This document shows positions 4,268 to 38,276 of a stretch of 38,276 bases of DNA, piece after piece. This DNA comes from an uncultured Lachnospiraceae bacterium. Lineage in GTDB: Bacteria; Bacillota; Clostridia; Lachnospirales; Lachnospiraceae. A program made the position numbers and the translations under genes. The stretch lies in the NCBI GenBank assembly GCA_902473545.1, contig CABRSG010000001.1, positions 1 to 38,276 on the forward strand. The letters run 5' to 3'. The notes below the pieces were generated by a model. The model searched no databases and was not told the DNA's origin. It saw only the letters and a program-made list of their open reading frames with translations. The number at the start of each line of letters is the position of its first letter. Positions within the stretch are counted from its first letter, which is position 1.

Positions 4268-4840
4268 TTACTTGCAATTATACTGTTTTTTAGACAAATT
4301 GTCAATTGGCGATACCTGTAAAAACCAATTTTTAGAAAATCTGTATACCCACAGCGCACAAAGGCACGCCATTGTCTCCAAAACAAGAAATAGTACCGCC
4401 ATGCCAGCCGCACTTTCTGTGCCATTTCGCACAAGATAGATCATTTCACCCAGCATATTCACCCCCGCAAAGGATGCCGTAAGCTGCGATCGCATCGGAA
4501 TTTTCTTCACCGCCGCTTCATATTGATATTCTCGCAGAGAATTTCCCGCCGAAAGCAGCGCAAACAGCGCCGTCCCCAGGCTCGCCGCCGCCACCACCTG
4601 CGCCGCGTACGGCAGCAGCACGTAAAAGCAATTCGCCATGCCCGGCGCCGGGATGCAGCCGTTTGTGATCATCGCCGCCATCATCACCGCCCAGACCGCA
4701 CCCAGCCTTATCGCCGCCGTCTTCCATTTTATATTCGCTTCATCAAACACATATTGCTTTCCGGTATAGATATATTCCCCTTTTTCATTCTTTTTAAACG
4801 CGTCCAGATGGGCGCGGCGTCCTTTTTTCCTTCCCGCCAT
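4268..4840 (-). CDS. Hypothetical membrane protein (about 4 TM segments)
   Basis: 190-aa ORF with AAAGG RBS and hydrophobic segments; co-oriented 32 bp upstream of oppA. Confidence 0.7.
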   Translation of the reverse strand: MAGRKKGRRAHLDAFKKNEKGEYIYTGKQYVFDEANIKWKTAAIRLGAVWAVMMAAMITNGCIPAPGMANCFYVLLPYAAQVVAAASLGTALFALLSAGNSLREYQYEAAVKKIPMRSQLTASFAGVNMLGEMIYLVRNGTESAAGMAVLFLVLETMACLCALWVYRFSKNWFLQVSPIDNLSKKQYNCK

Positions 4841-5142: not shown

Positions 5143-6975
5143 ATGAATCAGGAAAAAATCCGCAACATCGCCATCATTGCCCATGTCGACCACGGAAAAA
5201 CAACACTGGTGGACGAGCTGCTGAAACAAAGCGGCGTATTCCGCGAAAACCAGGCGGTTGCCGAGCGCGTCATGGACTCCAACGACATCGAGCGCGAGCG
5301 CGGCATCACGATTCTTTCAAAAAATACCGCCGTATATTACAAAGACTACAAAATCAACATCGTAGACACCCCGGGGCACGCCGATTTCGGCGGCGAGGTG
5401 GAACGCGTTCTGAAAATGGTGGACGGCGTTATCCTCGTCGTTGACGCCTTCGAAGGCTCCATGCCGCAGACAAAATTCGTGCTGCGCAAGGCGCTGGATC
5501 TCGATCTTCCGGTCATCGTCTGTATCAATAAGATCGACCGTCCGGAGGCAAGACCTGCCGAGGTTATTGACGAGATTCTGGAGCTGTTCATCGACCTGGA
5601 CGCCTCCGACGAGCAGCTTGACTGTCCGTTTATCTACGCCTCCGCAAAAGCGGGCTACGCCGTGCTGGAGTTATCCGACGAGCACCGCGACATGACACCG
5701 CTTTTTGAGACGATCATCAACTATATCCCGGCTCCGAAGGGCAACCCGGACGCGCCGCTGCAGGTGCTTATCAGCACCATCGACTACAACGAATACGTCG
5801 GTCGTATCGGCGTCGGCAAGGTGGACAACGGTTCCATCCGCGTCAACCAGGATGTTGTGCTGGTAAACCATCACGAGCCGGACAAGCAGAAAAAAGTAAA
5901 AATCAGCAAGCTCTACGAGTTTGACGGTCTGAACAAGGTGGACGTAAACGAGGCGGGCACCGGCTCCATCGTTGCCATCTCGGGCATTGCCGACCTTCAT
6001 ATCGGCGATACGCTCTGCTCTCCGGAGCATGTGGAGTCCATCCCGTTCCAGAAGATTTCCGAACCGACCATCGCCATGCACTTTATGGTAAACGACAGCC
6101 CGCTCGCCGGGCAGGAGGGCAAATTTGTGACCTCCCGCCATCTGCGCGACCGCCTGTTCCGCGAGCTTAACACAGATGTCAGCCTGCGTGTGGAGGAAAC
6201 CGAGGAGACCGAGTGCTACAAGGTATCCGGGCGCGGCGAGCTGCATCTTTCTGTTCTGATCGAGAATATGCGCCGCGAGGGTTACGAATTTGCAGTGAGC
6301 AAGGCGGAAGTGTTATATAAGCAGGACGAGCGCGGCAAAAAACTGGAGCCGATGGAAATTGCATATGTCGACGTTCCCGAGGAATTTTCCGGTACCGTTA
6401 TCAATAAGCTGAGCAGCCGCAAAGGTGAGCTGCAGGGCATGAGCCAGGGAAGCGGCGGCTACACCCGTCTGGAGTTTTCCATCCCGGCGCGCGGTCTGAT
6501 CGGCTACAGGGGCGAATTCCTCACCGACACCAAAGGAAACGGTATCCTGAACACCACCTACGACGGCTACGGTCCCTACAAGGGAGATATCCAGTACCGC
6601 AAGCAGGGTTCTCTGATCGCCTTTGAATCCGGCGAGTCCGTCACCTACGGTCTGTTCGCCGCCCAGGAACGCGGCACCCTCTTTATCGGACCTGGCGAAA
6701 AGGTGTACTCCGGCATGGTCATCGGACAGAACGGCAAGACCGACGACATCGAGCTGAACGTCTGCAAGACCAAGCATCTGACAAATACCCGCGCCTCCGG
6801 CTCCGACGACGCCCTCAAGCTGACGCCGCCGCGCGTCCTCAGCCTTGAGCAGGCGCTGGAGTTCATCGACACCGACGAGCTTCTGGAGGTTACTCCGAAG
6901 AGCCTGCGCATCCGCAAGAAGATCCTTGATCCGACCATGCGCAAGAGAGCGGCATTTAAGAAAAACAATCAATAA
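5143..6975 (+). CDS. typA: Translational GTPase TypA/BipA
   Basis: [61 protein letters not shown]. Confidence 0.98.
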
Positions 6976-14731: not shown

Positions 14732-15811
14732 ATGGGAAATTTACCAAAAACCATGAAAGCACTGGTCGCTTACGGTCCAGGCGATTACCGTCTTGAGGCA
14801 GAACATCCGGTACCGGTATGCGGGCCGGACGATATCATCATTAAAACGGAAGGCTGCGGCGTCTGCGTCAGTGATGTAAAATGCTATCACGGAGCCGGCA
14901 GATACTGGGGAAGCGAGACAGAAAAGGCATGGGTGGAACCGCCTTTCATTCCCGGACATGAATTTCTCGGTTTTGTAGCGGAAATCGGAGAAAATGTAAA
15001 GGGCTTTGAAATCGGCGACCGCATCACTGCCGACCAGATACTGCCCTGTGGAGAATGCCGGTTCTGCAAAAACGGCAGATACTGGATGTGTCAGCCGCAC
15101 AAAATGTTCGGCTATCAGAATACAAACGACGGCGGTATGGCAGAATATGTACGCTATCCGAAAACAGCCGTAATCTCCAGGGTTCCAAAGGAGCTTCCGC
15201 GGGAAAAAGCCCTGCTTATCGAGCCGTATGCCTGCTCCAAGCACGCGGTAGACCGCGCAGGCGTCACGAATGAGGATATTCTCGTTATCGCCGGAGCCGG
15301 TACCCTCGGACTTGGCATGATTACCTACGCACGCATGAAAAATCCGGCAAAACTGATCGTTGTGGATATGATCGATGAGCGTCTGGAAAAAGCAAAAGAT
15401 TTCGGGGCGGATATCGTAATCAACCCCTCCAAAGAAGATGCCATTGCCAGAATCATGGAATTAACCGAAGGCTACGGCTGTGACATCTATATTGAAGCAA
15501 CCGGTCATCCCTCCAGTGTAAAACAAGGTCTTGCAATGGTGCGCAAGCTTGGCACGTTTGTGGAATTCGGCGTGTTCGCGCAGGAAACAAGCGTCGACTG
15601 GTCCGTAATCGGCGACGGCAAGGAGCTGAATGTACTCGGCTCCCACATCAGTCCCTACTGCTATCCCTTCGTCATTGAGCACATGGCAGATGGAAGCCTG
15701 AAAACAGATGGCCTGATAAAACGCACCTTCCCCATCGAAAAATGGGAAGAAGCCTTCGAATACGCCAGCGGCAAATATGGCGACTTCAAGGTTGCGATTA
15801 CATTTGACTGA
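14732..15811 (+). CDS. Zn-dependent polyol/alcohol dehydrogenase (MDR family, erythritol/L-threitol dehydrogenase-like)
   Basis: CGVCVSD, PGHEF catalytic Zn motif, CGECRFC...C structural Zn motif, GAGTLG Rossmann motif. Confidence 0.85.
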   Translation: MGNLPKTMKALVAYGPGDYRLEAEHPVPVCGPDDIIIKTEGCGVCVSDVKCYHGAGRYWGSETEKAWVEPPFIPGHEFLGFVAEIGENVKGFEIGDRITADQILPCGECRFCKNGRYWMCQPHKMFGYQNTNDGGMAEYVRYPKTAVISRVPKELPREKALLIEPYACSKHAVDRAGVTNEDILVIAGAGTLGLGMITYARMKNPAKLIVVDMIDERLEKAKDFGADIVINPSKEDAIARIMELTEGYGCDIYIEATGHPSSVKQGLAMVRKLGTFVEFGVFAQETSVDWSVIGDGKELNVLGSHISPYCYPFVIEHMADGSLKTDGLIKRTFPIEKWEEAFEYASGKYGDFKVAITFD

Positions 15812-15835
15812 TACAATGCACACGTGAATAAACAG

Positions 15836-15885
15836 GCAGGGCTGCTGCACTAAAGACTGGCAGATCTTCAGCGCGGCAGCCCTGC
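15836..15885 (+). terminator. Long hairpin at the end of the sugar operon
   Basis: gcagggctgctgc...gcggcagccctgc arms; no clear U-tract. Confidence 0.5.
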
Positions 15886-16031
15886 TCTGCATATATGCTT
15901 CCGTTACCTGCCCGGCAGCGGTCCTGTTCTGTATATTTTTCGTCCCTCGTTCAATGCATTCAGAGTATCTCCGTGAAGGGGCTTTTTCAGGTATTTGTCC
16001 TGATTTATACAATAATGATATATGATGATGT

Positions 16032-16490
16032 GGGTGTCGAAAGTACGACAGCATCAAGTTTCGTTGCATTCGCCTCAAACTTTGATCCATCGATATACAG
16101 ATGTTGGAAATCCACACCGTCTGCTTTTCCGATATATTCCATGACTGCTTTGAAGATATTCTGCACGGATTCTTATAATTCCTCATTGATAAAGTAACTG
16201 AAAGCACAGTAAGCAGGCGTCTCACAATCCATCAGATACATGTATCGTATATTTGTTTTACAGCGGTCTTCTAATTTTCTCAGGGATGCGTGTATCCTGT
16301 GTCCATGAAACCGAATAAGACTGTCTTTAGCATGTTGACACGATTATATCCTGGCCTGCCAGGCTTGCGGTATGGTTCAGGCTTCAGATACTTTGCTATT
16401 TCGATCTCCTCCAATTTTTTTCCTGAATTATTCCGCAAAATAAAAGAGCTGTGAAATTTGGAGTTTTTCAATTTCTTTTTTCACAGCCCC
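16032..16490 (-). mobile_element. Decayed IS1182-family element (transposase pseudogene fragment)
   Basis: Minus-strand reading GRPGYNRVNMLKTVLFGFMDTGY / frameshift near 16290 / ASLRKLEDRCKTNIRYMYLMD...FINEEL, stop at 16173-16175, then ...DFQHLYIDGSKFEANA, truncated near 16065; putative end GGGGCTGTGAAAAAA at 16490; left boundary uncertain. Confidence 0.8.
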
Positions 16491-16527
16491 AACTTTAAAA
16501 TGATTTTACAATTATTTTTTGGAATGC

Positions 16528-17229
16528 TTAATCCAGCTCGCGGATGAAGCCGCACACCAGACGGACGCTGTGCTCCACCGCCATTTTTTCAAAGGTTTCG
16601 TAGTCCATGTTTGCGCTGTCGTCCGCTTTGTCGGAGATGGCGCGGATAATCACAAACGGAATATTATTCAGATACGCGGTATGCGCGATCGCAGCACCCT
16701 CCATTTCCGTGCAGTATCCGCCGAAGGTTTCCGCGAGCCGGTCTTTCGTCGGTCTGTCGCAGATAAACTGGTCACCGCTCACGATCCTGCCCTCAAATAC
16801 ATGGATGTCCGGATTTACGCGCTGGCAGACTTCTTTTGCAATCTTCCGCAGGTTTGCATCCGCTTTAAAGGAAAATACTTCCATCTGCGGCACCTGACCT
16901 GCCGGATAGCCAAAACCAGTCGCGTCCATGTCATGATGCAGCACGTCCGTGGAAATCACAACGTCTCCGATATTGATCTCCGATTTCAGAGAGCCGGCGA
17001 TTCCTGTATTAATAATAACGTCAACTTTAAATTCATCTTTCAGAATCTGCGCGCAGACCGCCGCGTTCACCTTTCCGATACCGCTCCTTACCACGACCAC
17101 CGAATGATCCTCCAGAATACCCTCCAGAAAATTCATCTTTGCGCGCGTCACCATGCGCTGCTGCCACATCGTCGCTTTAAGCTGCGCGACCTCTACTTCC
17201 ATTGCCCCGATAATACCTATTTTCTTCAT
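16528..17229 (-). CDS. mtnN: 5'-methylthioadenosine/S-adenosylhomocysteine nucleosidase
   Basis: MKKIGIIGAMEVE, SGIGKVNAA, INTGIAG, SGDQFI, EMEGAAIAH, IRAISDKAD; start at ATG 17229. Confidence 0.96.
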   Translation of the reverse strand: MKKIGIIGAMEVEVAQLKATMWQQRMVTRAKMNFLEGILEDHSVVVVRSGIGKVNAAVCAQILKDEFKVDVIINTGIAGSLKSEINIGDVVISTDVLHHDMDATGFGYPAGQVPQMEVFSFKADANLRKIAKEVCQRVNPDIHVFEGRIVSGDQFICDRPTKDRLAETFGGYCTEMEGAAIAHTAYLNNIPFVIIRAISDKADDSANMDYETFEKMAVEHSVRLVCGFIRELD

Positions 17230-17338
17230 AATATAATACCTGTATCCCCTTCCTGATGCTGCCATCCCTTATAAATAGTATAAATAAGATTTCCGGAAAT
17301 AGCAACAAAAATATTTTTATTTTATCAATCACAAACTA

Positions 17339-17367
17339 TTGACATATGTTCTCAAATCATATATAAT
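17339..17367 (+). promoter_or_regulatory. Consensus sigmaA promoter
   Basis: TTGACA(17339-17344)-17 bp-TATAAT(17362-17367); predicted start about 17374. Confidence 0.9.
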
Positions 17368-17374
17368 ACAGTCA

Positions 17375-17591
17375 TTCTAAACATCTAAGGTCCGCCGGTT
17401 CGGCATGAAACCCCTGAATACGGGCTAAAAACTGCATAGCGCATGGTCTGAACGGATCAGATTCCTCTCGCGCCTTATCAAACGGTCTGCACGGCAGCTC
17501 CGCTTTCTTTCCTTATGGGGATACTGGCTCTTTGCGCCGCTTAATCCCAAAGCCTTTGTGCAGGCTGCCCGGCGGGTTCTTCGGTTTAGAA
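17375..17591 (+). ncRNA. Candidate structured ncRNA or leader RNA of unknown family (~217 nt)
   Basis: Begins at the predicted TSS; ends pair (ttctaaac/gtttagaa; ccgccgg/ccggcgg); nested helices cggc/gccg, cccc/gggg, ctgc/gcag; hairpins tctga/tcaga and agcct/aggct; GC-rich between AT-rich flanks. Confidence 0.65.
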
Positions 17592-17618
17592 AAAATATTA
17601 AGAAAAGAGGTGAGTATT

Positions 17619-17789
17619 ATGAGACATTTTTTTACGCGGCTTTACGAAGAAGAAGACGGTATCAGCACCGTGGAAATCATTCTGATCATCGTGGTTCTTA
17701 TCGGTCTGGTTATCATCTTCAAAAGTCAGCTTACCAGTCTGGTAAACAACATCTTTAAAAAAATTGTCAGTCAGAGCAACAGTATTTAA
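17619..17789 (+). CDS. flp: Flp1-like type IVb (Tad) major pilin
   Basis: 56 aa from ATG 17619 after GAGGTG; EEEDG|ISTVE prepilin cleavage site with E5, then a hydrophobic helix. Confidence 0.9.
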   Translation: MRHFFTRLYEEEDGISTVEIILIIVVLIGLVIIFKSQLTSLVNNIFKKIVSQSNSI

Positions 17790-17801
17790 CGGAGGTACGA
17801 C

Positions 17802-19322
17802 ATGAAACGGTGTTACGGAAAGGGGACAATCTCAGTTTTTCTCAGTCTCGTAAGCGTCCTGTTTTTGTCCCTTCTCTGTACTGCCGAGGAGTCGGCAAGA
17901 ATAGAAGGGTGCAGGGCAAAGGCAGCGGCTGCGCTGGATATGGGAATGTTTTCAGTGATGGGCGAATTTGAGCGCGAATTGCTGGAGCGCTATGATGTAT
18001 TTTTTCTGGACGGCGCCGCCGGAAGCGATTCCTTTAACCAGGATCAGCTCAATCAGACGCTGCAGGATTATATGACATACAACGTTTCTCCGAATAAAGG
18101 ACTTCTCCTCAGCCGCTTCGATATATTTAGTCAAAATATGACTAAATCGAGCATCACGGGAACAATGCGTGCAACCGACGAAAAAGGCGCTGCCTTTTAT
18201 CAACAGGCTGTCGGCTTTATGCGCGAAAATCTCGGAACAGAGTTTATCAGTATCTGGCTGGAGAGAATGAAAGACGGACAGCAGCTCGAAAAGGCGGAGG
18301 AAATTTACAAGAGCAGGGACGAAAGCATTTCCGAGAGCCTGAAGCAGATGGAGGAAGCTCAGAAACAGCTTGAAGCACAGACGGAAGTACAGGAGGGCGA
18401 AACGCAGCCGGAAACCGAAGCACTTCCGGCCGTCCCGGAGTCGCAAAATCCGCTGAATATTATCCGGAAGTTAAAAAAAGAGGGTATTCTCGGGCTGGTG
18501 TTAAAGGATAAAAGCATAGTCTCGCAAAAGTCTCTCTCCTCCTCTGTTCCCTCTAAAAGGACGAACCAGAAAGGAAACCTGCCGGTTGAAAAAGAATACA
18601 GCGGTCTTACCGCCGACCTGCTGTTCCAGCAGTACCTGTTCGAGCGCTTCAGCCTGTTTACTGACAGGGATAAAGAGGGCGTGCTGGATTATGAGCTGGA
18701 ATATATCCTGTGCGGGAAAAGCAGTGATGAGAAAAATTTAAAAACAGTCGTCACACGTCTGCTACTTTTGCGGGAAGGCGCCAATTTTCTCTTTCTTTCC
18801 AATGATGCCGCCAGTATGGAGGCTGCCAATGCGTTTGCCGCGCTGCTTGTCGGCGCTGTGCCGATTCCAGGCATCGTCACCGTGACTGCCTATGCTCTTT
18901 TGCTGGCGTGGGCGTATGCGGAAAGTCTGCTGGATGTGCGTGAGCTGCTTGCAGGCGGAAAGGTACCGGTACTGAAATCCTCCGAAACCTGGCGGCTCTC
19001 GCTTACTTCTGTTCCAAATCTTTTACAGATTCTGGAACAGACGGACGGTTCTTCGCAAAACGGGCTCAGCTACGCCGCCTATCTGCAGATTCTATTTACA
19101 CTGGGCGGAACCGGCAAGTATCCAATGCGTGCGTTGGATCTGATCGAGAGCTACATGAAGTCCCGCCCGGCGACTGCCGCCTTCCGCGCGGATCACGCCA
19201 TCAAGATACAGGCGGAGGCGGATTTTAATATACCGCCGTTGTTTCTGCGCGTATCCAGCGCCTTTTTAAAAACCGGAACAGCAGAAACCGACTACCATAT
19301 TTCGGGAAGCTTTGCATACTGA
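17802..19322 (+). CDS. DUF5702-type / TadG-like pilus-associated protein
   Basis: KG|TISVFLSL pilin-like N-terminus, LDYELEYILCGKSSDEKNL, LLREGANF, WAYAES..DV..LL.GGKVP; directly after flp. Confidence 0.75.
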   Translation: MKRCYGKGTISVFLSLVSVLFLSLLCTAEESARIEGCRAKAAAALDMGMFSVMGEFERELLERYDVFFLDGAAGSDSFNQDQLNQTLQDYMTYNVSPNKGLLLSRFDIFSQNMTKSSITGTMRATDEKGAAFYQQAVGFMRENLGTEFISIWLERMKDGQQLEKAEEIYKSRDESISESLKQMEEAQKQLEAQTEVQEGETQPETEALPAVPESQNPLNIIRKLKKEGILGLVLKDKSIVSQKSLSSSVPSKRTNQKGNLPVEKEYSGLTADLLFQQYLFERFSLFTDRDKEGVLDYELEYILCGKSSDEKNLKTVVTRLLLLREGANFLFLSNDAASMEAANAFAALLVGAVPIPGIVTVTAYALLLAWAYAESLLDVRELLAGGKVPVLKSSETWRLSLTSVPNLLQILEQTDGSSQNGLSYAAYLQILFTLGGTGKYPMRALDLIESYMKSRPATAAFRADHAIKIQAEADFNIPPLFLRVSSAFLKTGTAETDYHISGSFAY

Positions 19323-19344
19323 CGTAACAAGGAGGTGTCTGAAA

Positions 19345-20349
19345 ATGCTCTTTCCGCATAGGATATTTTCTACCATAAAACAAATGCATAAAAACTACAG
19401 AAAGGATTTGGATTCTCTCCCGGCAGGAGCTTTTCCCAGATTGTCCGAGCGCGAAAGGGCATTTTCGGACGTCTCCGAAGATTGCAAAAAGGCGCTTTCC
19501 GATGCATCCCAAGGTTCCAAAAAGGCATTTTCCGATGCATCCCGAAATTCCAAAAAGGCGCTTTCCAGTGCATCCGCAAGCATGACGCTCGAAGCAGCCT
19601 GTGTACTCCCATGGTTTCTGTTCGCGTTGCTGGCTGTTATGCAGTTTTTCAAGATTATCATGGTTTCCAGCGCCGTTCTTGCCGGAATGCAGGACACGGC
19701 GAAGGATATGGCGGCTTACGCCTACATCCGTGAACTGGGCGTATCCGCAGGAGACGGCGTCGCAGCCGACCTTCTGACCGGAGGATTATCTGCGGCTTAT
19801 GCAAAAGGAAACATCGAACGCAAAGCTTCTTTTTCTGAAAATGACGGTACGCTTCATTTTTGGAAATCTTCCTTTATGAAGAATGACATCATCGATATTG
19901 CCGTCACCTACAGCGCCGGAAATACTTACACACTGCTTCCCATCCCACCCGTCAAATCCGCTCTCCGCGCGCGTGTACGGGCGTGGACCGGAAGGGATGG
20001 AAACGGAAGCTCCGGTTCCGACAGCGGCTCCGGTGAGGAAACCAAAGAGGAAACTGTCATCGTGACGGCAACCGGACATGTTTATCATAAAGATGAAAAC
20101 TGCACGCACATCAAGCTTTCCATACGCAGTGTGAGCAGGGATTCCGTGCGCAGTCTTCGGAACAAATCGGGCGCAAAATATACCGCCTGCGAGCGCTGCC
20201 GCGGCGGCGGATCAAATGTATTTATCACGGACTACGGAACGCACTATCATTCCTCGCTTAGCTGCAGCGGTCTGAAGCGGACGCTGACACGCGTTCCCCT
20301 GTCGGAGCTGGGAGGATGGAGGGCATGTTCAAAATGCGGTGGATCTTGA
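19345..20349 (+). CDS. TadE-like minor pilin with two C-terminal His/Cys metal-binding repeats
   Basis: ATG 19345 after AGGAGG; A|SMTLEAACVLP plus TM; RAWTG; VTATGHVYH...C...CERC and ITDYGTHYH...C...CSKC. Confidence 0.78.
   Translation: MLFPHRIFSTIKQMHKNYRKDLDSLPAGAFPRLSERERAFSDVSEDCKKALSDASQGSKKAFSDASRNSKKALSSASASMTLEAACVLPWFLFALLAVMQFFKIIMVSSAVLAGMQDTAKDMAAYAYIRELGVSAGDGVAADLLTGGLSAAYAKGNIERKASFSENDGTLHFWKSSFMKNDIIDIAVTYSAGNTYTLLPIPPVKSALRARVRAWTGRDGNGSSGSDSGSGEETKEETVIVTATGHVYHKDENCTHIKLSIRSVSRDSVRSLRNKSGAKYTACERCRGGGSNVFITDYGTHYHSSLSCSGLKRTLTRVPLSELGGWRACSKCGGS
19453..19581 (+). repeat. 33-bp in-frame tandem repeat, about 4 copies (KKA[L/F]SDAS...)
   Basis: Units start at 19453, 19486, 19519, 19552. 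Confidence 0.9.
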
Positions 20350-21540: not shown

Positions 21541-23327
21541 ACATTTCATACAAACACGACATGACGCACAATTATATGGTTCCGGATTTGACCGACGGCA
21601 TCTGTGAGGATGACTACCGCATTCATATGCTGATGGAAAATCACATCCGCGGTCTGCTTCCCTGCAGTCTGAAAAAAATTAACTGCCGCAGTCATTTTTT
21701 CTACGATATTACCTCACGTCAGTCTATGGAACATATTTATAACAGCCGCTTTCTGAATACTGCGGACATCCGCACGCTTCTGCGCGGTCTGTACCGCGCC
21801 TTAAAAGAAGTAAAAAAATATCTTCTGGACGTCGACCGGATTGTGCTGCAGCCGGATATGATCTATATGGATATCGAATCAAGGGAGCCGTTTTTCTGCT
21901 ACCTTCCAGGATACCAAAACGATCTGCTGCAGTCTTTCCGGGAGCTTACCGCTTATCTGCTGGAACATCTGGATCAGACGGACAATTCCGCTGTGCTGCT
22001 CGGATACGAAATCTACCGGAAAGCACGCATTGAAAACTACAGCCTGGAACGGCTGCTCCAGGAAGCAGGTCGGCCGGAAGCTGACAACACCTTGCGTCAG
22101 AATTGCCGCTCAGACACCACACCGCACAAATATAATGCCAAACCGCCTTACCAGGCCTCCGAATCCCGTAAATATCATGTTAATACGCCTTACCAGGTCT
22201 CCGAATCCCGTGAATATGATGTCGATACTCCTTCCACTCCCTATGCTACCATAGCAGAGCACAGCGAAGCGTTCCCTGTATCTCCCTCTGACTCTCCCAA
22301 AAAGAAGCAGGCGGCAAAAAAGACCACAGCGTCGAAAAAAGAAAAGTCCAAGAAAAGGGCTCCAGGGAAAAGCCCGTCTGCAAACGGGAATGCCTCTAAC
22401 CGTATTTTCCTTGTTGTCTGCTTTATTTTCTCTATTTTTCTTGCATTGATTGCCATGTGGCTCTGGAAGCTGGACACCACTCAGATCGGCGGTATTATAT
22501 TCCTGCTGATCGGGCTTTTGGCTTATGGTCTTTCACTGGAAAGCAAAAAGAAAAAGGGAGAAGAAAAGCATGAGGATACCTCCCTCTCCGATGCAATGGA
22601 AGATTTTCAGGAGGAGCCTTACCATGAGGAAGTCCTTCCCTCCAAAGAAAGCAAGCCGGCACGGGGAAGCTCCCGGAAAAAAAGCTCTGCCCGTACACAT
22701 GACGAACCTCCTGCGTATTATGAAGCCTCCCATGTATCCGAACCTGTGGCACGCTATGAAGCCTCCCATATATCCAAACCTGCGGCACGCTATGAAACCT
22801 CTCAATTATCCGAACCTGCGGCACGCTATGAAGCCTCTCATTTATCCGAACCTGCGGCACGCTATAAAACCTCCCATGTATCCGAACCTGTGGCACACTA
22901 TGAAACCTCCCATGTATCTGAATCTCCTGCATATCGGTATCATACAGATTGTATGCAAATGGACAACGGAAAAAAACATCGGCTTGGCGACACTGGTGTG
23001 CTTTACGAGGAAAACGGCGATTACGACCCTCACCTTGTTCTGATCAGCATGGATCCCCGCCGCAGGGATAGCATTGTCCTGGAGGATGACTGTTATATTA
23101 TCGGAAAGCTTTCTTCAGAATCCGATATTGTGCTGGAGCATTCTTCTGTGAGCCGCATTCATGCTAAAATCGAGCGATATGCAAACGACTATTACCTCTG
23201 CGATATGAACTCTACAAACGGCACTTTTTTAAATGGCCAGCGGCTTTCCATCAAAGATCCTGTTAAAATCCAGCCCAATGACGAAATAGCGTTTGCACGG
23301 GTGCGCTTCCGCGTGGGGATATGCTAG
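21537..23327 (+). CDS. DUF6382-type N-terminal domain, 2 TM, repeat linker and C-terminal FHA domain protein
   Basis: YRIHMLMENHIRGLLPC...FFYDITSRQS N-domain; FHA motifs IIGK, SVSRIHA, DMNSTNGTFLNG; ATGA overlap with tadE. Confidence 0.85.
   Translation: MNISYKHDMTHNYMVPDLTDGICEDDYRIHMLMENHIRGLLPCSLKKINCRSHFFYDITSRQSMEHIYNSRFLNTADIRTLLRGLYRALKEVKKYLLDVDRIVLQPDMIYMDIESREPFFCYLPGYQNDLLQSFRELTAYLLEHLDQTDNSAVLLGYEIYRKARIENYSLERLLQEAGRPEADNTLRQNCRSDTTPHKYNAKPPYQASESRKYHVNTPYQVSESREYDVDTPSTPYATIAEHSEAFPVSPSDSPKKKQAAKKTTASKKEKSKKRAPGKSPSANGNASNRIFLVVCFIFSIFLALIAMWLWKLDTTQIGGIIFLLIGLLAYGLSLESKKKKGEEKHEDTSLSDAMEDFQEEPYHEEVLPSKESKPARGSSRKKSSARTHDEPPAYYEASHVSEPVARYEASHISKPAARYETSQLSEPAARYEASHLSEPAARYKTSHVSEPVAHYETSHVSESPAYRYHTDCMQMDNGKKHRLGDTGVLYEENGDYDPHLVLISMDPRRRDSIVLEDDCYIIGKLSSESDIVLEHSSVSRIHAKIERYANDYYLCDMNSTNGTFLNGQRLSIKDPVKIQPNDEIAFARVRFRVGIC
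22128..22235 (+). repeat. 42-bp in-frame tandem repeat, about 2.5 copies
   Basis: KYNAKPPYQASESR / KYHVNTPYQVSESR / EYDVDTP; units at 22128, 22170, 22212. Confidence 0.85.
22704..22934 (+). repeat. 36-bp in-frame tandem repeat, 6 copies plus a partial (YEASHVSEPVAR)
   Basis: Units at 22719, 22755, 22791, 22827, 22863, 22899. Confidence 0.95.
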
Positions 23328-35323: not shown

Positions 35324-36805
35324 TTAAAATGACATCACCGCCGGCGCCATCAATATCACCAGTACCACCAGAAGCATCAGTATCATCGGCAGGACAAGCT
35401 TTGTGCCGGCTTCCTCGCCAAGCTTGCGTGCCATCTGGCTGCGTTCTTCCATGGAAAATGCCGCTTCCTCCTGCAGAAGCTTTGCAAGTCCCTGCGAACC
35501 CTTCTGCAGATTTGCGGAAAGCATAGTGCCAAGCTTGTTGTAGCTGCCGACTCCGCAGCGTCTGCCGAAATTTTCGTAGGAACGCGCCTCCGGCACGCCG
35601 CTCTGCATCTCATAGTAGGATGTAAGCATTTCTTCATAGGCATAATGGACATCCTTTGTTTCACAGTTCCGATATTCGAGTGCGATTTTAAAAAAGGCAT
35701 TCTGCATGGTAAGTCCGGCATTCAGAAGCATACTTAATTTAAAAAGCAGGTCCGGATAATCCATCAGCATCTGTCGCCGCCGCTGCTCCTGCGCCTTCTG
35801 ACGCTCCTGATTTTGGGCAATCCAGGCGCAGACCGCCGCCAGAAGGGTAAGCCCCAGACAAATTGCTGCAGTATTCGTCTCCTTTGCCGCCCAGATGATC
35901 TTTTTTCCATCCAGTTCCTCCGGCAGGTGCAGAGTCGCTTCCTCTGCGCTCTGCTCATCTGCCTTTTCCACTTCGCTCTGCAGAGCACGCCGCAATTTTT
36001 CCTCGTCACTGTACAAGGGCGGATAAAGCTGTAACGCACATTCATAAATAGCCGCCCGCCCGTCGCAGTCCAGAAGCGCTTTTAACTGCAGAAGCGCTCC
36101 CTCCTCCGGCAGGTCTTCCGTTACATTTCCATCCGCATCCAGCAAATCCATCGGATCCTGTATCCATTGGATACTGACAACGCCGTCAAGAACTTCGGAA
36201 GGCAAAACGACACGCCCGCGCACCTCATCGACGGAAGCATTGTCTCCCAGAATAATCCGGTCAATTTCTTCGATTGCCTGTTCCAGCAATTCTTGTTTTT
36301 CTTCTTCCGTATAGCGGCGCTTACTTACTGTAACCTCCAGTTGCTCCGTCTGTGCGCTCTCACCGATCTGCGCCTGCAGTTCCCACGACCAGGCATCCTG
36401 CCCGTCCGTCGGTCTTGGCAGCTCATAGCCGCTCTCCAAAACAGACTGTCCTGCCAGCGCTGCCTGCAGCAGAAGGCTCAGCCCGCTTCCAAGAAATAAC
36501 ACCAGAAGCACACGGGCAAGGCGGGCGGTCTCAAACACGATCGGGGCAGATGTCTGAACCGTCCCTTTTTCCCCGATCGGCATCCATGCTTTATCGCAGC
36601 CCGCACGCTCGCCGGATGTTCTCTTGTCAAATATTCTCTTCCCGGCATGTCCGCGCTTCCCCTGTTCCAGTATCAGTAAATAATATGCCGCCTTATAAAA
36701 GGCTGCCTGTCCCTTCGGTGGAGAAATATCCTCCGGCAGACTGACCACTGCCGAAAGACACAGCAGCGCTGCCATCCCGATTAAAATTATGAAGCATACC
36801 ACCAT
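35324..36805 (-). CDS. tadC: TadC-like pilus platform protein (T2SSF family) with large extracytoplasmic domain
   Basis: DYPDLLFKLSMLLNAGLT, YENFGRRC, LSANLQKGS, GEEAGTKLVLPM. Confidence 0.85.
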   Translation of the reverse strand: MVVCFIILIGMAALLCLSAVVSLPEDISPPKGQAAFYKAAYYLLILEQGKRGHAGKRIFDKRTSGERAGCDKAWMPIGEKGTVQTSAPIVFETARLARVLLVLFLGSGLSLLLQAALAGQSVLESGYELPRPTDGQDAWSWELQAQIGESAQTEQLEVTVSKRRYTEEEKQELLEQAIEEIDRIILGDNASVDEVRGRVVLPSEVLDGVVSIQWIQDPMDLLDADGNVTEDLPEEGALLQLKALLDCDGRAAIYECALQLYPPLYSDEEKLRRALQSEVEKADEQSAEEATLHLPEELDGKKIIWAAKETNTAAICLGLTLLAAVCAWIAQNQERQKAQEQRRRQMLMDYPDLLFKLSMLLNAGLTMQNAFFKIALEYRNCETKDVHYAYEEMLTSYYEMQSGVPEARSYENFGRRCGVGSYNKLGTMLSANLQKGSQGLAKLLQEEAAFSMEERSQMARKLGEEAGTKLVLPMILMLLVVLVILMAPAVMSF

Positions 36806-36809
36806 ACTG

Positions 36810-36862
36810 CTATTCTCCTATACTATTCTCCTATATGATTCTTCTATACTCTGCTTCCTACA
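36810..36862. repeat. 13-bp tandem repeat (2 exact, 2 degenerate) spanning the tadB-tadC gap and containing the RBS
   Basis: ctattctcctata at 36810 and 36823, tgattcttctata at 36836, ctctgcttcctaca at 36849. Confidence 0.75.
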
Positions 36863-37595
36863 CTTCGATGCTCACAATCTTTCTGCCCCAGAGCCACGCC
36901 AGAAAGTAGACCAGCAGGCATACACTCATGATCATGATTCCCGCCGGATTATGATACATGACATCCAGAAATCCCGGAGAAACCATCTGCACATAGATGA
37001 GGATCATACACGGAACAATGCTCATAATGTTCTGTTCCAGCCGTTTTGCTGAAAGACAGGTGTTAATCTCCCGGCGCGTCTCCTCCTTCTGTGACATGCA
37101 CTGGACGGTATTTCGTATAATGGCGATCAGATTTCCGCCCGTCCTTTTCGCCGCCGAAAAGATATCGGCAAAATTTCGGATATCTTCAATGCCGCTGCGC
37201 ACTGCCAGCGCGCCAAGCAGCTGTTCCAGGCTGCGGTTCATGCCAAGCTGGACGACAATATAGCGGAATTCCCGGATAATTAAGGCATCCTCGTCGTATA
37301 GCTGCCGCAGCTCCCGCAATGCTTCCGTGAAGGCATTTTCCACCGAACAGCCCGCCGAGAGTGCAACCGAAACCGACTGCATTCCGGCCAGAAACTGCGC
37401 GGACAGCTCCTGCTGCCGCTTTTTGATACAGCTTTCACGGCGGATTTTCAGAAAAACTTTAAACAACGGAAGGCAGAGTGCAAATGCGATCAGCGAGCGG
37501 TAAAACAGATAACTGACGATTGCCGCCAGCAGCAGAAATATCCCCAGATTCTCCGCCATTTCTTTTTTAGAAAATTTATATTCCCGGTAATCCAT
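36858..37595 (-). CDS. tadB: TadB-like pilus platform protein (T2SSF family)
   Basis: LSAGCSVENAF, RSGIEDIRNFA, KRTGGNL, terminal KIVSIEV. Confidence 0.88.
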   Translation of the reverse strand: MDYREYKFSKKEMAENLGIFLLLAAIVSYLFYRSLIAFALCLPLFKVFLKIRRESCIKKRQQELSAQFLAGMQSVSVALSAGCSVENAFTEALRELRQLYDEDALIIREFRYIVVQLGMNRSLEQLLGALAVRSGIEDIRNFADIFSAAKRTGGNLIAIIRNTVQCMSQKEETRREINTCLSAKRLEQNIMSIVPCMILIYVQMVSPGFLDVMYHNPAGIMIMSVCLLVYFLAWLWGRKIVSIEV

Positions 37596-38276
37596 CTAAT
37601 AAAATCCTGCTCTTTCCAGTTTCTTTCTCTGCTGAAGCTCGCCTTTTTTCACAAGGCTCCCTTCCAGCTTGTCACTCCGTCTCCTGCCTTCCTCAAATTC
37701 AAACAGCGTGTGCGTCAGTATTTCCTCCGTCTCATAGCGGTAGCCGATGATTTCAATAATCTCCAGTACCTTCCTGCTCTTATCACGCATTCTCCCGAGA
37801 TGCACCATGATATCAAGCCCGGAGGCAATCTGCCGCCGGACGGCGGAGACAGGCAGCTCAATACCCATCAGTACCATCGTCTCCAATCGCGCAAGCATAT
37901 CGCGGGGACTATTCCCGTGTCCGGTAGAAAGGCTTCCGTCGTGCCCGTTGTTCATCGCCTGGATCATATCGATCGTCTCCTCCCCGCGCACTTCGCCTAC
38001 GATAACCCTATCCGGCCGCATACGTAAACTCGCACGGATGAGGTCGCGGATGGTGATGGCGTGCTCGCCCTGGGTATTTTCCCTGCGCGCCTCAAGCCGG
38101 ACGAGGTTGGAAACCCCCTGTATCTGCAGTTCCGCGTTGTCCTCAATAGTGATGATGCGCTCATCCTTTGGAATAAAATCTGACAGCGCATTTAAAAACG
38201 TGGTCTTGCCGGAGCCGGTGCCTCCGCTGATGAAAATATTGTATCCGGCGATTACCAGCCTGCGCAGAAACTGTAC
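37596..38276 (-). CDS. tadA: TadA/CpaF pilus assembly ATPase, 5' end outside window
   Basis: Frame open to the window edge: ISGGTGSGKTT Walker A, TIEDNAEL, SLRMRPDRVIVGEVRG Walker B, GHDGSLSTGH. Confidence 0.95.
   Translation of the reverse strand, partial: VQFLRRLVIAGYNIFISGGTGSGKTTFLNALSDFIPKDERIITIEDNAELQIQGVSNLVRLEARRENTQGEHAITIRDLIRASLRMRPDRVIVGEVRGEETIDMIQAMNNGHDGSLSTGHGNSPRDMLARLETMVLMGIELPVSAVRRQIASGLDIMVHLGRMRDKSRKVLEIIEIIGYRYETEEILTHTLFEFEEGRRRSDKLEGSLVKKGELQQRKKLERAGFY

Follow-up and report, generated by a model that had tools for sequence, protein, structure and literature searches.

A putative Tad promoter–leader module in the 5' untranslated region of a detached flp pilin operon from an uncultured Lachnospiraceae bacterium

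The flp leader and described leader elements

In Clostridia, cyclic di-GMP (c-di-GMP) riboswitches (GEMM-I/c-di-GMP-II) precede type IV pilin genes, such as pilA1 of Clostridioides difficile, and mRNAs of Firmicutes carry 5'-terminal stem-loops that act as stabilisers, as exemplified by the aprE and ermC leaders of Bacillus subtilis. The present analysis deals with the region ahead of flp, the first gene of a Tad pilin operon, in a stretch of 38,276 nt from an uncultured Lachnospiraceae bacterium (contig CABRSG010000001.1, assembly GCA_902473545.1), hereafter called the window, to which all coordinates refer. A first-pass annotation had proposed for this region an unassigned structured RNA of about 217 nt, either an abundant non-coding RNA (ncRNA) or a riboswitch-like leader. 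By comparing the region among related genomes, we came to a different reading, to which we assign a probability of about 0.6: positions 17374–17618 would be the untranslated 5' leader of an mRNA that covers the flp operon and is read from the promoter at 17339–17367, and this leader would be young, ordinary and lineage-specific, neither a separate RNA gene nor a 217-nt aptamer. Judging from the alignments described below, this 5' untranslated region carries a small, genus-restricted Tad promoter–leader module.

Specifically, the promoter (17339–17367, + strand) is composed of TTGACA at 17339–17344, a 17-nt spacer and TATAAT at 17362–17367, and matches the sigma-70/sigma-A consensus at 12/12 positions, exactly as first annotated. 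Such perfect TTGACA-N17-TATAAT sites occur 33 times in the 2.67-Mb assembly of the same genome (70% complete), so that the promoter at 17339 is not unique. Taking A17374 as the putative +1, from which leader nucleotides are numbered throughout, the leader extends over 245 untranslated nt up to flp (17619–17789, + strand), which encodes a Flp1-like pilin of 56 aa (PF16982, E 3.7e-24) and is preceded by the Shine-Dalgarno (SD) sequence AGAGGTG at 17606–17612 (+ strand), unpaired in the minimum free energy (MFE) fold. According to Pfam, the flp unit continues with genes for DUF5702, an unassigned protein of 345 aa, an A24 peptidase, a TadE-like protein and a DUF6382/FHA protein, and ends at 23327. 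No terminator-like site was found on the + strand across 16400–18400, which agrees with the annotated read-through into flp. What stood of the earlier proposal is the leader itself, which is unannotated, lies under a consensus promoter and runs into the pilin gene; a conserved riboswitch-like RNA was not supported, as the leader occurs in 5/24 genomes of the genus and is clearly more conserved than synonymous sites over nt 1–42 only.

The region resembles the c-di-GMP riboswitch leaders in being a long leader placed directly before a pilin gene, in Clostridia. Unlike them, it has no match in Rfam: no family of Rfam 15, including c-di-GMP-I/II, 6S, raiA, T-box and SAM, reached the gathering score anywhere in the window, and no match emerged at E ≤ 10 on 17230–17700, which confirms the annotated lack of a known RNA family. 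In addition, it has no terminator, no SD-sequestering platform and no core conserved across relatives; of the features that riboswitches have in general, neither a covarying core conserved across diverse organisms nor an expression platform was found.

A stand-alone, abundant ncRNA of about 217 nt, freed by processing and with read-through into flp as a by-product, would agree with the perfect promoter and with the helix 17375–17382/17584–17591, which would close the 5' and 3' ends of the molecule. Of the features of a stand-alone small RNA, however, the promoter is present and no terminator was found; the 8-bp closing helix exists in the window and in one 91%-identical relative only, and the region matches no family, is present in single copy and is not conserved as a unit. 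Nothing else was found in favour of this part of the first-pass annotation, which we consider very improbable.

Conservation of the promoter–leader module and the Tad operon heads

A DNA search of 61 genomes for the promoter and leader of the window (genome G000) detected only four relatives, namely G015 (91% identity, query positions 1–258), G010, G020 and G018; three further matches cover just the ribosome binding site (RBS) and the start of flp. The leader is present in 5/24 genomes of the genus by blastn, and flp itself in 23/24 genomes of the genus and in 190/201 of the family. No second copy was recovered in the own genome by either DNA search or nhmmer with a profile of the five leaders. 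A pattern scan of genome contigs retrieved five stretches, three corresponding to the flp leader and two to unrelated promoters, and the same scan of metagenome contigs retrieved one stretch, identical to a known leader; no new leader variant came from either scan.

The neutral yardstick for constraint was how far the 4-fold degenerate sites in two flanking genes, those for DUF5702 and the nucleosidase, are identical. With G015, for which the yardstick is 0.86–0.88, G000 shares 42/45 positions of the promoter, 37/41 of nt 1–42 and 57/59 of nt 43–101. The corresponding values are 41/45 (0.91), 35/42 (0.83) and 42/59 (0.71) with G010 (yardstick 0.55–0.58), 41/45 (0.91), 36/42 (0.86) and 38/59 (0.64) with G020 (0.57–0.58), and 35/45 (0.78), 27/47 (0.57) and 17/59 (0.29) with G018 (0.31). 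These figures clearly point to purifying selection on the promoter and the first ~42 leader nt only, the identities at nt 43–101 being close to the neutral level. The promoter spacer and the upstream ACTA are likewise conserved. Past nt ~100, no alignment is possible between the window and G010, G020 or G018; the variable part at 17474–17568 (+ strand) is common to G015 only, and the leaders of the five genomes measure 245, 307, 263, 197 and 161 nt. Because selection keeps the promoter and the first ~40 bases only, we favour an ordinary lineage-specific mRNA leader over a new 217-base structured RNA.

The constrained 5' module (nt 1–42; 17374–17415, + strand), whose identity lies above the synonymous-site level, consists of an ATTCT box, an AUCU element, a small hairpin pairing GCCG 17394–17397 with CGGC 17401–17404 (GCCG-GUU-CGGC in the window), an A-rich stretch and an ACCCC tail. 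Related sequences were found upstream of the A24 peptidase gene, at the heads of the Tad operons (A24 peptidase-tadZ-cpaF-tadB-tadC) of the genus. Here, a 12/12 promoter with the flank ACTATTGACA and a spacer end, CATAT.ATATATAAT, similar to that of the flp promoter is present in 17/21 upstream regions, and an 11/12 promoter in three more. The leader motif follows in 14/21 operon heads examined, in the order hairpin 1 (ACUUACC-AAUUCU-GAUAAGU type), AUCU, hairpin 2 (GUCG-UAU-CGAC) and an AUUCC-like tail, hairpin 1 beginning 7 nt past the -10 box, at or beside +1. In the operon heads of G000, G015, G010 and G020 the promoter is kept and the leader has only ~20 nt.

Nucleotides 1–42 of the window leader align with these operon-head leaders (alignment A3), and the window has all the parts that define the module: a promoter with the ACTATTGACA flank, followed within ~45 nt by ATTCT, AUCU and a hairpin of 4–5 bp, before a Tad gene. 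Both types of promoter share this flank and the -10 context CATATATAAT, and both types of leader share the ATTCT box, the AUCU and the 4–5 bp hairpin with its 3-nt loop. They differ in that the operon-head spacer AACATAT is missing from the flp promoter, and in that the flp-type copies begin with ATTCT at +1 and so miss the 5' half of hairpin 1, have C-G in place of U-A in hairpin 2 and continue with 120–260 nt of extra leader; moreover, the AUUCC-like tail is a trait of the operon-head copies and reads ACCCC in the window. On the basis of this alignment, we conclude that the flp promoter, together with leader nt 1 to ~42, is a copy, or a relative, of the Tad operon-head promoter–leader.

As a separate observation, the operon-head spacer AACATAT(C/T)ATA, directly before TATAAT, is conserved genus-wide, which is unusual for a plain sigma-A promoter; a regulator or a second sigma factor might have a site that overlaps it.

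The variation of the small hairpin bears on whether it is read as RNA or as DNA. Its stem occurs as GUCG/CGAC, GCCG/CGGC and GGCG/CGCC, and one pair of hairpin 2 is U-A in 10, C-G in 6 and G-C in 1 of 18 sequences. The G018 genome carries the module twice, ahead of flp and ahead of A24-tadZ (G018:C72, about 14948–15135), and these paralogous leaders differ by a compensated pair, GUCG/CGAC versus GCCG/CGGC, which favours an RNA stem over a protein reading fixed bases. Alternatively, the small palindromes just past the promoter (ACTTA-N-TAAGT and TGTCG-N3-CGACA at the operon heads, GCCG-N3-CGGC in the window) might be operator sites for a transcription factor repressing or activating both Tad units. 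The inverted repeats run from about +1 to +35, a position typical of repressor sites, the spacer and flanks are conserved beyond a plain sigma-A promoter, and the covariation support for RNA pairing is weak. Against an operator, the stem varies by the paired substitutions listed above, even between the two G018 copies, and a single base-reading factor would not tolerate such variation; in addition, G-U type pairs appear on the sense strand only (hairpin 1 of G016) and the first palindrome is missing from flp-type leaders. Taken together, these data make a DNA operator unlikely.

A covariance model, R1, built from alignment A3 with the window sequence as part of the seed, scored 34.8 bits at 17363–17431 and matched 18/24 genomes of the genus, largely by construction; one of these matches, in G017, is a new site 4.6 kb upstream of flp, and G016 has two borderline extra matches. 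In 150 other genera of the family the model, which is weak and was run with strict filters, gave no match. This result and the replaced or unalignable 3' two-thirds of the leader in G010, G020 and G018 do not bear out a conserved unit of 217 nt. Rfam returned for the operon-head leaders two sub-threshold chance matches only, neither on the leader strand. The module sample comprises about 14 distinct sequences, many of them closely related, and covariation statistics are weak because of this small diversity.

The arrangement of the Tad genes places the leader in context. In 18/23 flp-bearing genomes of the genus, flp lies 23–223 nt behind a tadC-like open reading frame (ORF) ending in ...LVVLVIL.VPA...F*, and no promoter match of at least 10/12 was found within 600 nt upstream of these 18 flp genes, except for one of 10/12 (G005). 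In the window, a tadC-like gene (35324–36805, T2SSF domain), a tadB-like gene (36858–37595, T2SSF domain) and a cpaF-type ATPase gene (37596–38276, T2SSE domain, truncated by the window end) occupy the - strand, and this cpaF-tadB-tadC block (35324–38276) is convergent with the flp unit, ~12 kb past its end; hence, the window carries both halves of a split Tad locus. The C-terminus of the window TadC, ...LPMILMLLVVLVILMAPAVMSF*, is the same as that of the gene directly preceding flp in those 18/23 genomes. In G000, G015, G010, G020 and G018 the A24-tadZ operon head is 20–39 kb away from flp, and, since the genomes with a split locus are the five leader-bearing ones, the leader is found only where flp is detached from tadC. 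Outside the genus, 21 flp loci (one with 17 nt of upstream sequence only) showed a 12/12 promoter within 500 nt in no case and a 10/12 promoter in one, and in most of them a co-directional ORF ends just upstream.

Folding of the leader and possible role of the module

The complementary segments described in the first-pass annotation are real. Both outer helices, ttctaaac 17375–17382/gtttagaa 17584–17591 and ccgccgg 17392–17398/ccggcgg 17569–17575, are contained in the MFE fold, their 3' strands lying at 17569–17591 (+ strand) as CCGGCGG and GUUUAGAA, respectively. The pairs cccc 17411/gggg 17517, ctgc 17432/gcag 17494 and gggat 17518/atccc 17544, as well as the hairpins tctga-acgga-tcaga and agcct-ttgtgc-aggct, were also located as described. 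What was not confirmed is a structure beyond chance. The MFE of the leader is -69.8 kcal/mol, compared to -69.77 ± 4.5 for 200 shuffles (z = -0.01; a second run of 200 shuffles gave z = -0.15), and the leaders of the relatives have z-scores of -1.9, -2.7, -0.6 and -1.9. Among 2000 dinucleotide shuffles of the 245-nt leader, 30% contain a perfect inverted repeat of at least 8 bp and 31% at least three 7-mer pairs.

Part of this structure is shared with the closest relatives. RNAalifold on the four closest leaders retained hairpin 2 and two local hairpins at 17416–17473 (+ strand), which are common to the three closest relatives only: P2, CCC/GGG at about 17411–17424, and P3, GCGC 17439–17442/GCGC 17470–17473 around UCUGA 17447–17451/UCAGA 17457–17461. 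When the chosen structure was imposed on all five leaders, 93% of cells could pair and five pairs showed two-sided changes, a level reached by 4/500 shuffles; this structure was derived from those very sequences, and the G018 row is poorly aligned.

Our proposed explanation starts from the Tad locus, which would have been rearranged in five of the 24 genus genomes searched; we infer the order of the events from gene order only. The rearrangement would have parted flp from tadC, so that flp would have needed a promoter of its own, and the module would have supplied strong, co-ordinated transcription of both Tad units. The small 5'-proximal hairpin would act at the RNA level, most likely as an mRNA stability determinant or else as a site for a binding factor. 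We hold both parts of this role, co-ordinated transcription of the two halves and action of the hairpin through stability or binding, to be probable. The remaining ~200 nt would form a weakly constrained spacer, in which P2, P3 and the pairing of the 5' end with 17569–17591 may help to protect the 5' end, in this species and in the relative closest to it.

This proposal invites a comparison with the aprE and ermC stabilisers. Similarities are the strong promoter, a helix that starts at most two nucleotides from the inferred +1 (hairpin 1 of the operon heads starts 7 nt after the -10 box, and nt 2–9 of the window leader pair with 17584–17591), the lack of a terminator and the free SD. Unlike in the stabilisers, the 5' end is unpaired in the predicted folds of G010, G020 and G018, and the helices are weak. 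A helix starts within ~4 nt of the inferred 5' end in the predicted folds of G000 and G015; in the modules, it starts at the inferred +1 in 3/18 (G016A, G002A, G022A) and at +2 in two or three more. Membership among the 5'-terminal stabilisers cannot be scored, because these are defined by architecture and not by a sequence family.

Several results weigh against the reading of an ordinary leader with a small module at its 5' end. On the side of the module, covariation is not significant when the nine operon-head leaders are taken by themselves (47–55/500 shuffles reach it), the 50-nt modules are weakly folded, with a mean z of -0.65 over 18 sequences and values about 0 or positive in flp-type leaders, and its stabilising role is one that we infer from architecture only. 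On the side of the presumed spacer, some structure may be maintained. Identity of G010 over nt 43–101 (0.71) is somewhat higher than the neutral 0.57; an 8-mer in the first 12 nt with a downstream complement occurs in 1.35% of shuffles, by a post-hoc test; in P3, a few pairs have changed on both sides (A-U to C-G, G-C to A-U); and, of the distal leader, G010 and G020 recognisably keep only the 3' strand CCGGYG.... Moreover, when nt 1–30 were paired with the downstream leader, the fraction of shuffles giving a duplex at least as stable was 0.026 for G000, 0.000 for G015 and 0.028 for G020. The same duplex was no better than shuffles in G010 (0.31) and G018 (0.68), and the long-range helix was judged by per-sequence duplex energies only, as MAFFT puts the 3' strands of four leaders out of register.

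A rival reading is a cis-regulatory switch, in which CCGCCGG (17392–17398) would be held either in the local hairpin or in the long-range helix with 17569–17575, and a ligand, a protein or the temperature would decide the stability or translation of the flp mRNA. The local GCCG/CGGC and the long-range pairing are in fact mutually exclusive, the long-range duplex beats shuffles in 3/5 leaders with its 3' strand kept in G010 and G020, compensatory changes are present in P3, and no known family claims the element. However, folding stability is not in excess of shuffles, and the enclosed domain varies in sequence and length (161–307 nt), because of which no aptamer-like conserved core can be defined. 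In addition, the MFE fold leaves the SD free, and there is no terminator that might serve as expression platform; in none of the 19 leaders tested did the conserved AUCU region pair with the SD better than in shuffles (fractions 0.13–0.94); and G018 does not have the long-range pairing. We therefore regard such a switch as doubtful. Equally little weight is given to a broader version, according to which the ~45-nt module would be an undescribed cis-regulatory RNA element of Tad operons, read by a dedicated factor or signal and duplicated at the split so that both units are co-regulated, with 17569–17591 making a switch with two states out of the flp hairpin.

For Tad pili in gut Clostridia, control by a riboswitch or a new class of RNA of 217 nt would be notable, if true. 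The reading that we favour, an ordinary leader with a promoter–leader module, would offer a clean natural operon split, in which the orphaned half gained a copy of the operon's own promoter–leader. The small genus-restricted leader motif at Tad operon heads could also be a handle on Flp pilus regulation in abundant gut Lachnospiraceae. In the literature surveyed, at the level of titles and abstract openings, we found neither a published description of a Tad promoter–leader element of this genus nor a published regulatory element for Flp pili of gut Lachnospiraceae.

Neighbouring genes and further observations

Upstream of the leader and outside the element lies a divergent gene (16528–17232, - strand) for an MTA/SAH-nucleosidase-like protein (PNP_UDP_1, PF01048, E 3.5e-59), with a promoter-like site of its own, TTGCTA-17-TATACT, at 17277–17305 (- strand; 9/12 match). 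The nucleosidase gene adjoins the leader in G000, G015, G010 and G020, and the block holding the promoter-like site is conserved in the same four genomes; in G018, no mtnN-like ORF was detected next to this leader. As to whether homologs of the leader would follow mtnN or flp, a point raised in the first annotation, they track the Tad genes: the G018 leader precedes flp with no mtnN-like gene at its side, and the module is found at most Tad operon heads of the genus.

Further upstream, ~700 nt (15812–16527) separate an alcohol-dehydrogenase-like gene from the nucleosidase gene and contain only short or unassigned ORFs. For the short ORFs at 16005–16471 (two fragments, - strand), a resemblance to an insertion sequence transposase is not supported, as Pfam assigned them to 0 families. 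Between the two Tad halves, the window holds a sugar-utilisation block with genes for a LacI regulator, an ABC transporter, and GH2, MatE, AlkZ-like and EamA proteins.

Outside the window, the operon head of the Tad machinery of G000 is placed on the short contig C309 (2660–2934), whose end truncates the A24 peptidase gene so that its start remains; this head has a separate 12/12 promoter, a -10 context (ATCATATATAATACA) like that of the flp promoter and a leader of ~20 nt. In G012 (C23), ~24 kb separate flp from the A24 operon head, with both on one strand, and flp is still directly behind a tadC-like ORF, an arrangement which points to a separate, different rearrangement or insertion in the Tad locus.

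Other origins and coding capacities of the leader were considered and rejected. Against an origin of the leader from the 3' end of tadC, the five upstream regions had no blastx match below E 0.18 to any of 18 C-terminal TadC fragments, and blastn-short against tadC-flp junctions gave chance words of 9–13 nt only. For a leader peptide, the sole ATG ORF in the conserved part (seven codons, at GGCATGAAA) loses its ATG in G015, and for an in-frame extension of flp from a TTG at 17532, a 56-nt insertion in G015 breaks the frame.

The two unrelated promoters from the scan of genome contigs lie in two unrelated records of metagenome-assembled genomes and have the promoter pattern, including the TCTCAAAT spacer, without homology to the leader (positions 4307–4335 and 5234–5262); by eye, one precedes a tRNA gene and the other a gene for an ArsR-like regulator. 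Finally, the 345-aa protein of the flp unit (19312–20349, + strand), which has no Pfam family, shows repeated 'KKA(F/L)SDAS' units near its N-terminus and a Cys/His-rich C-terminal part.

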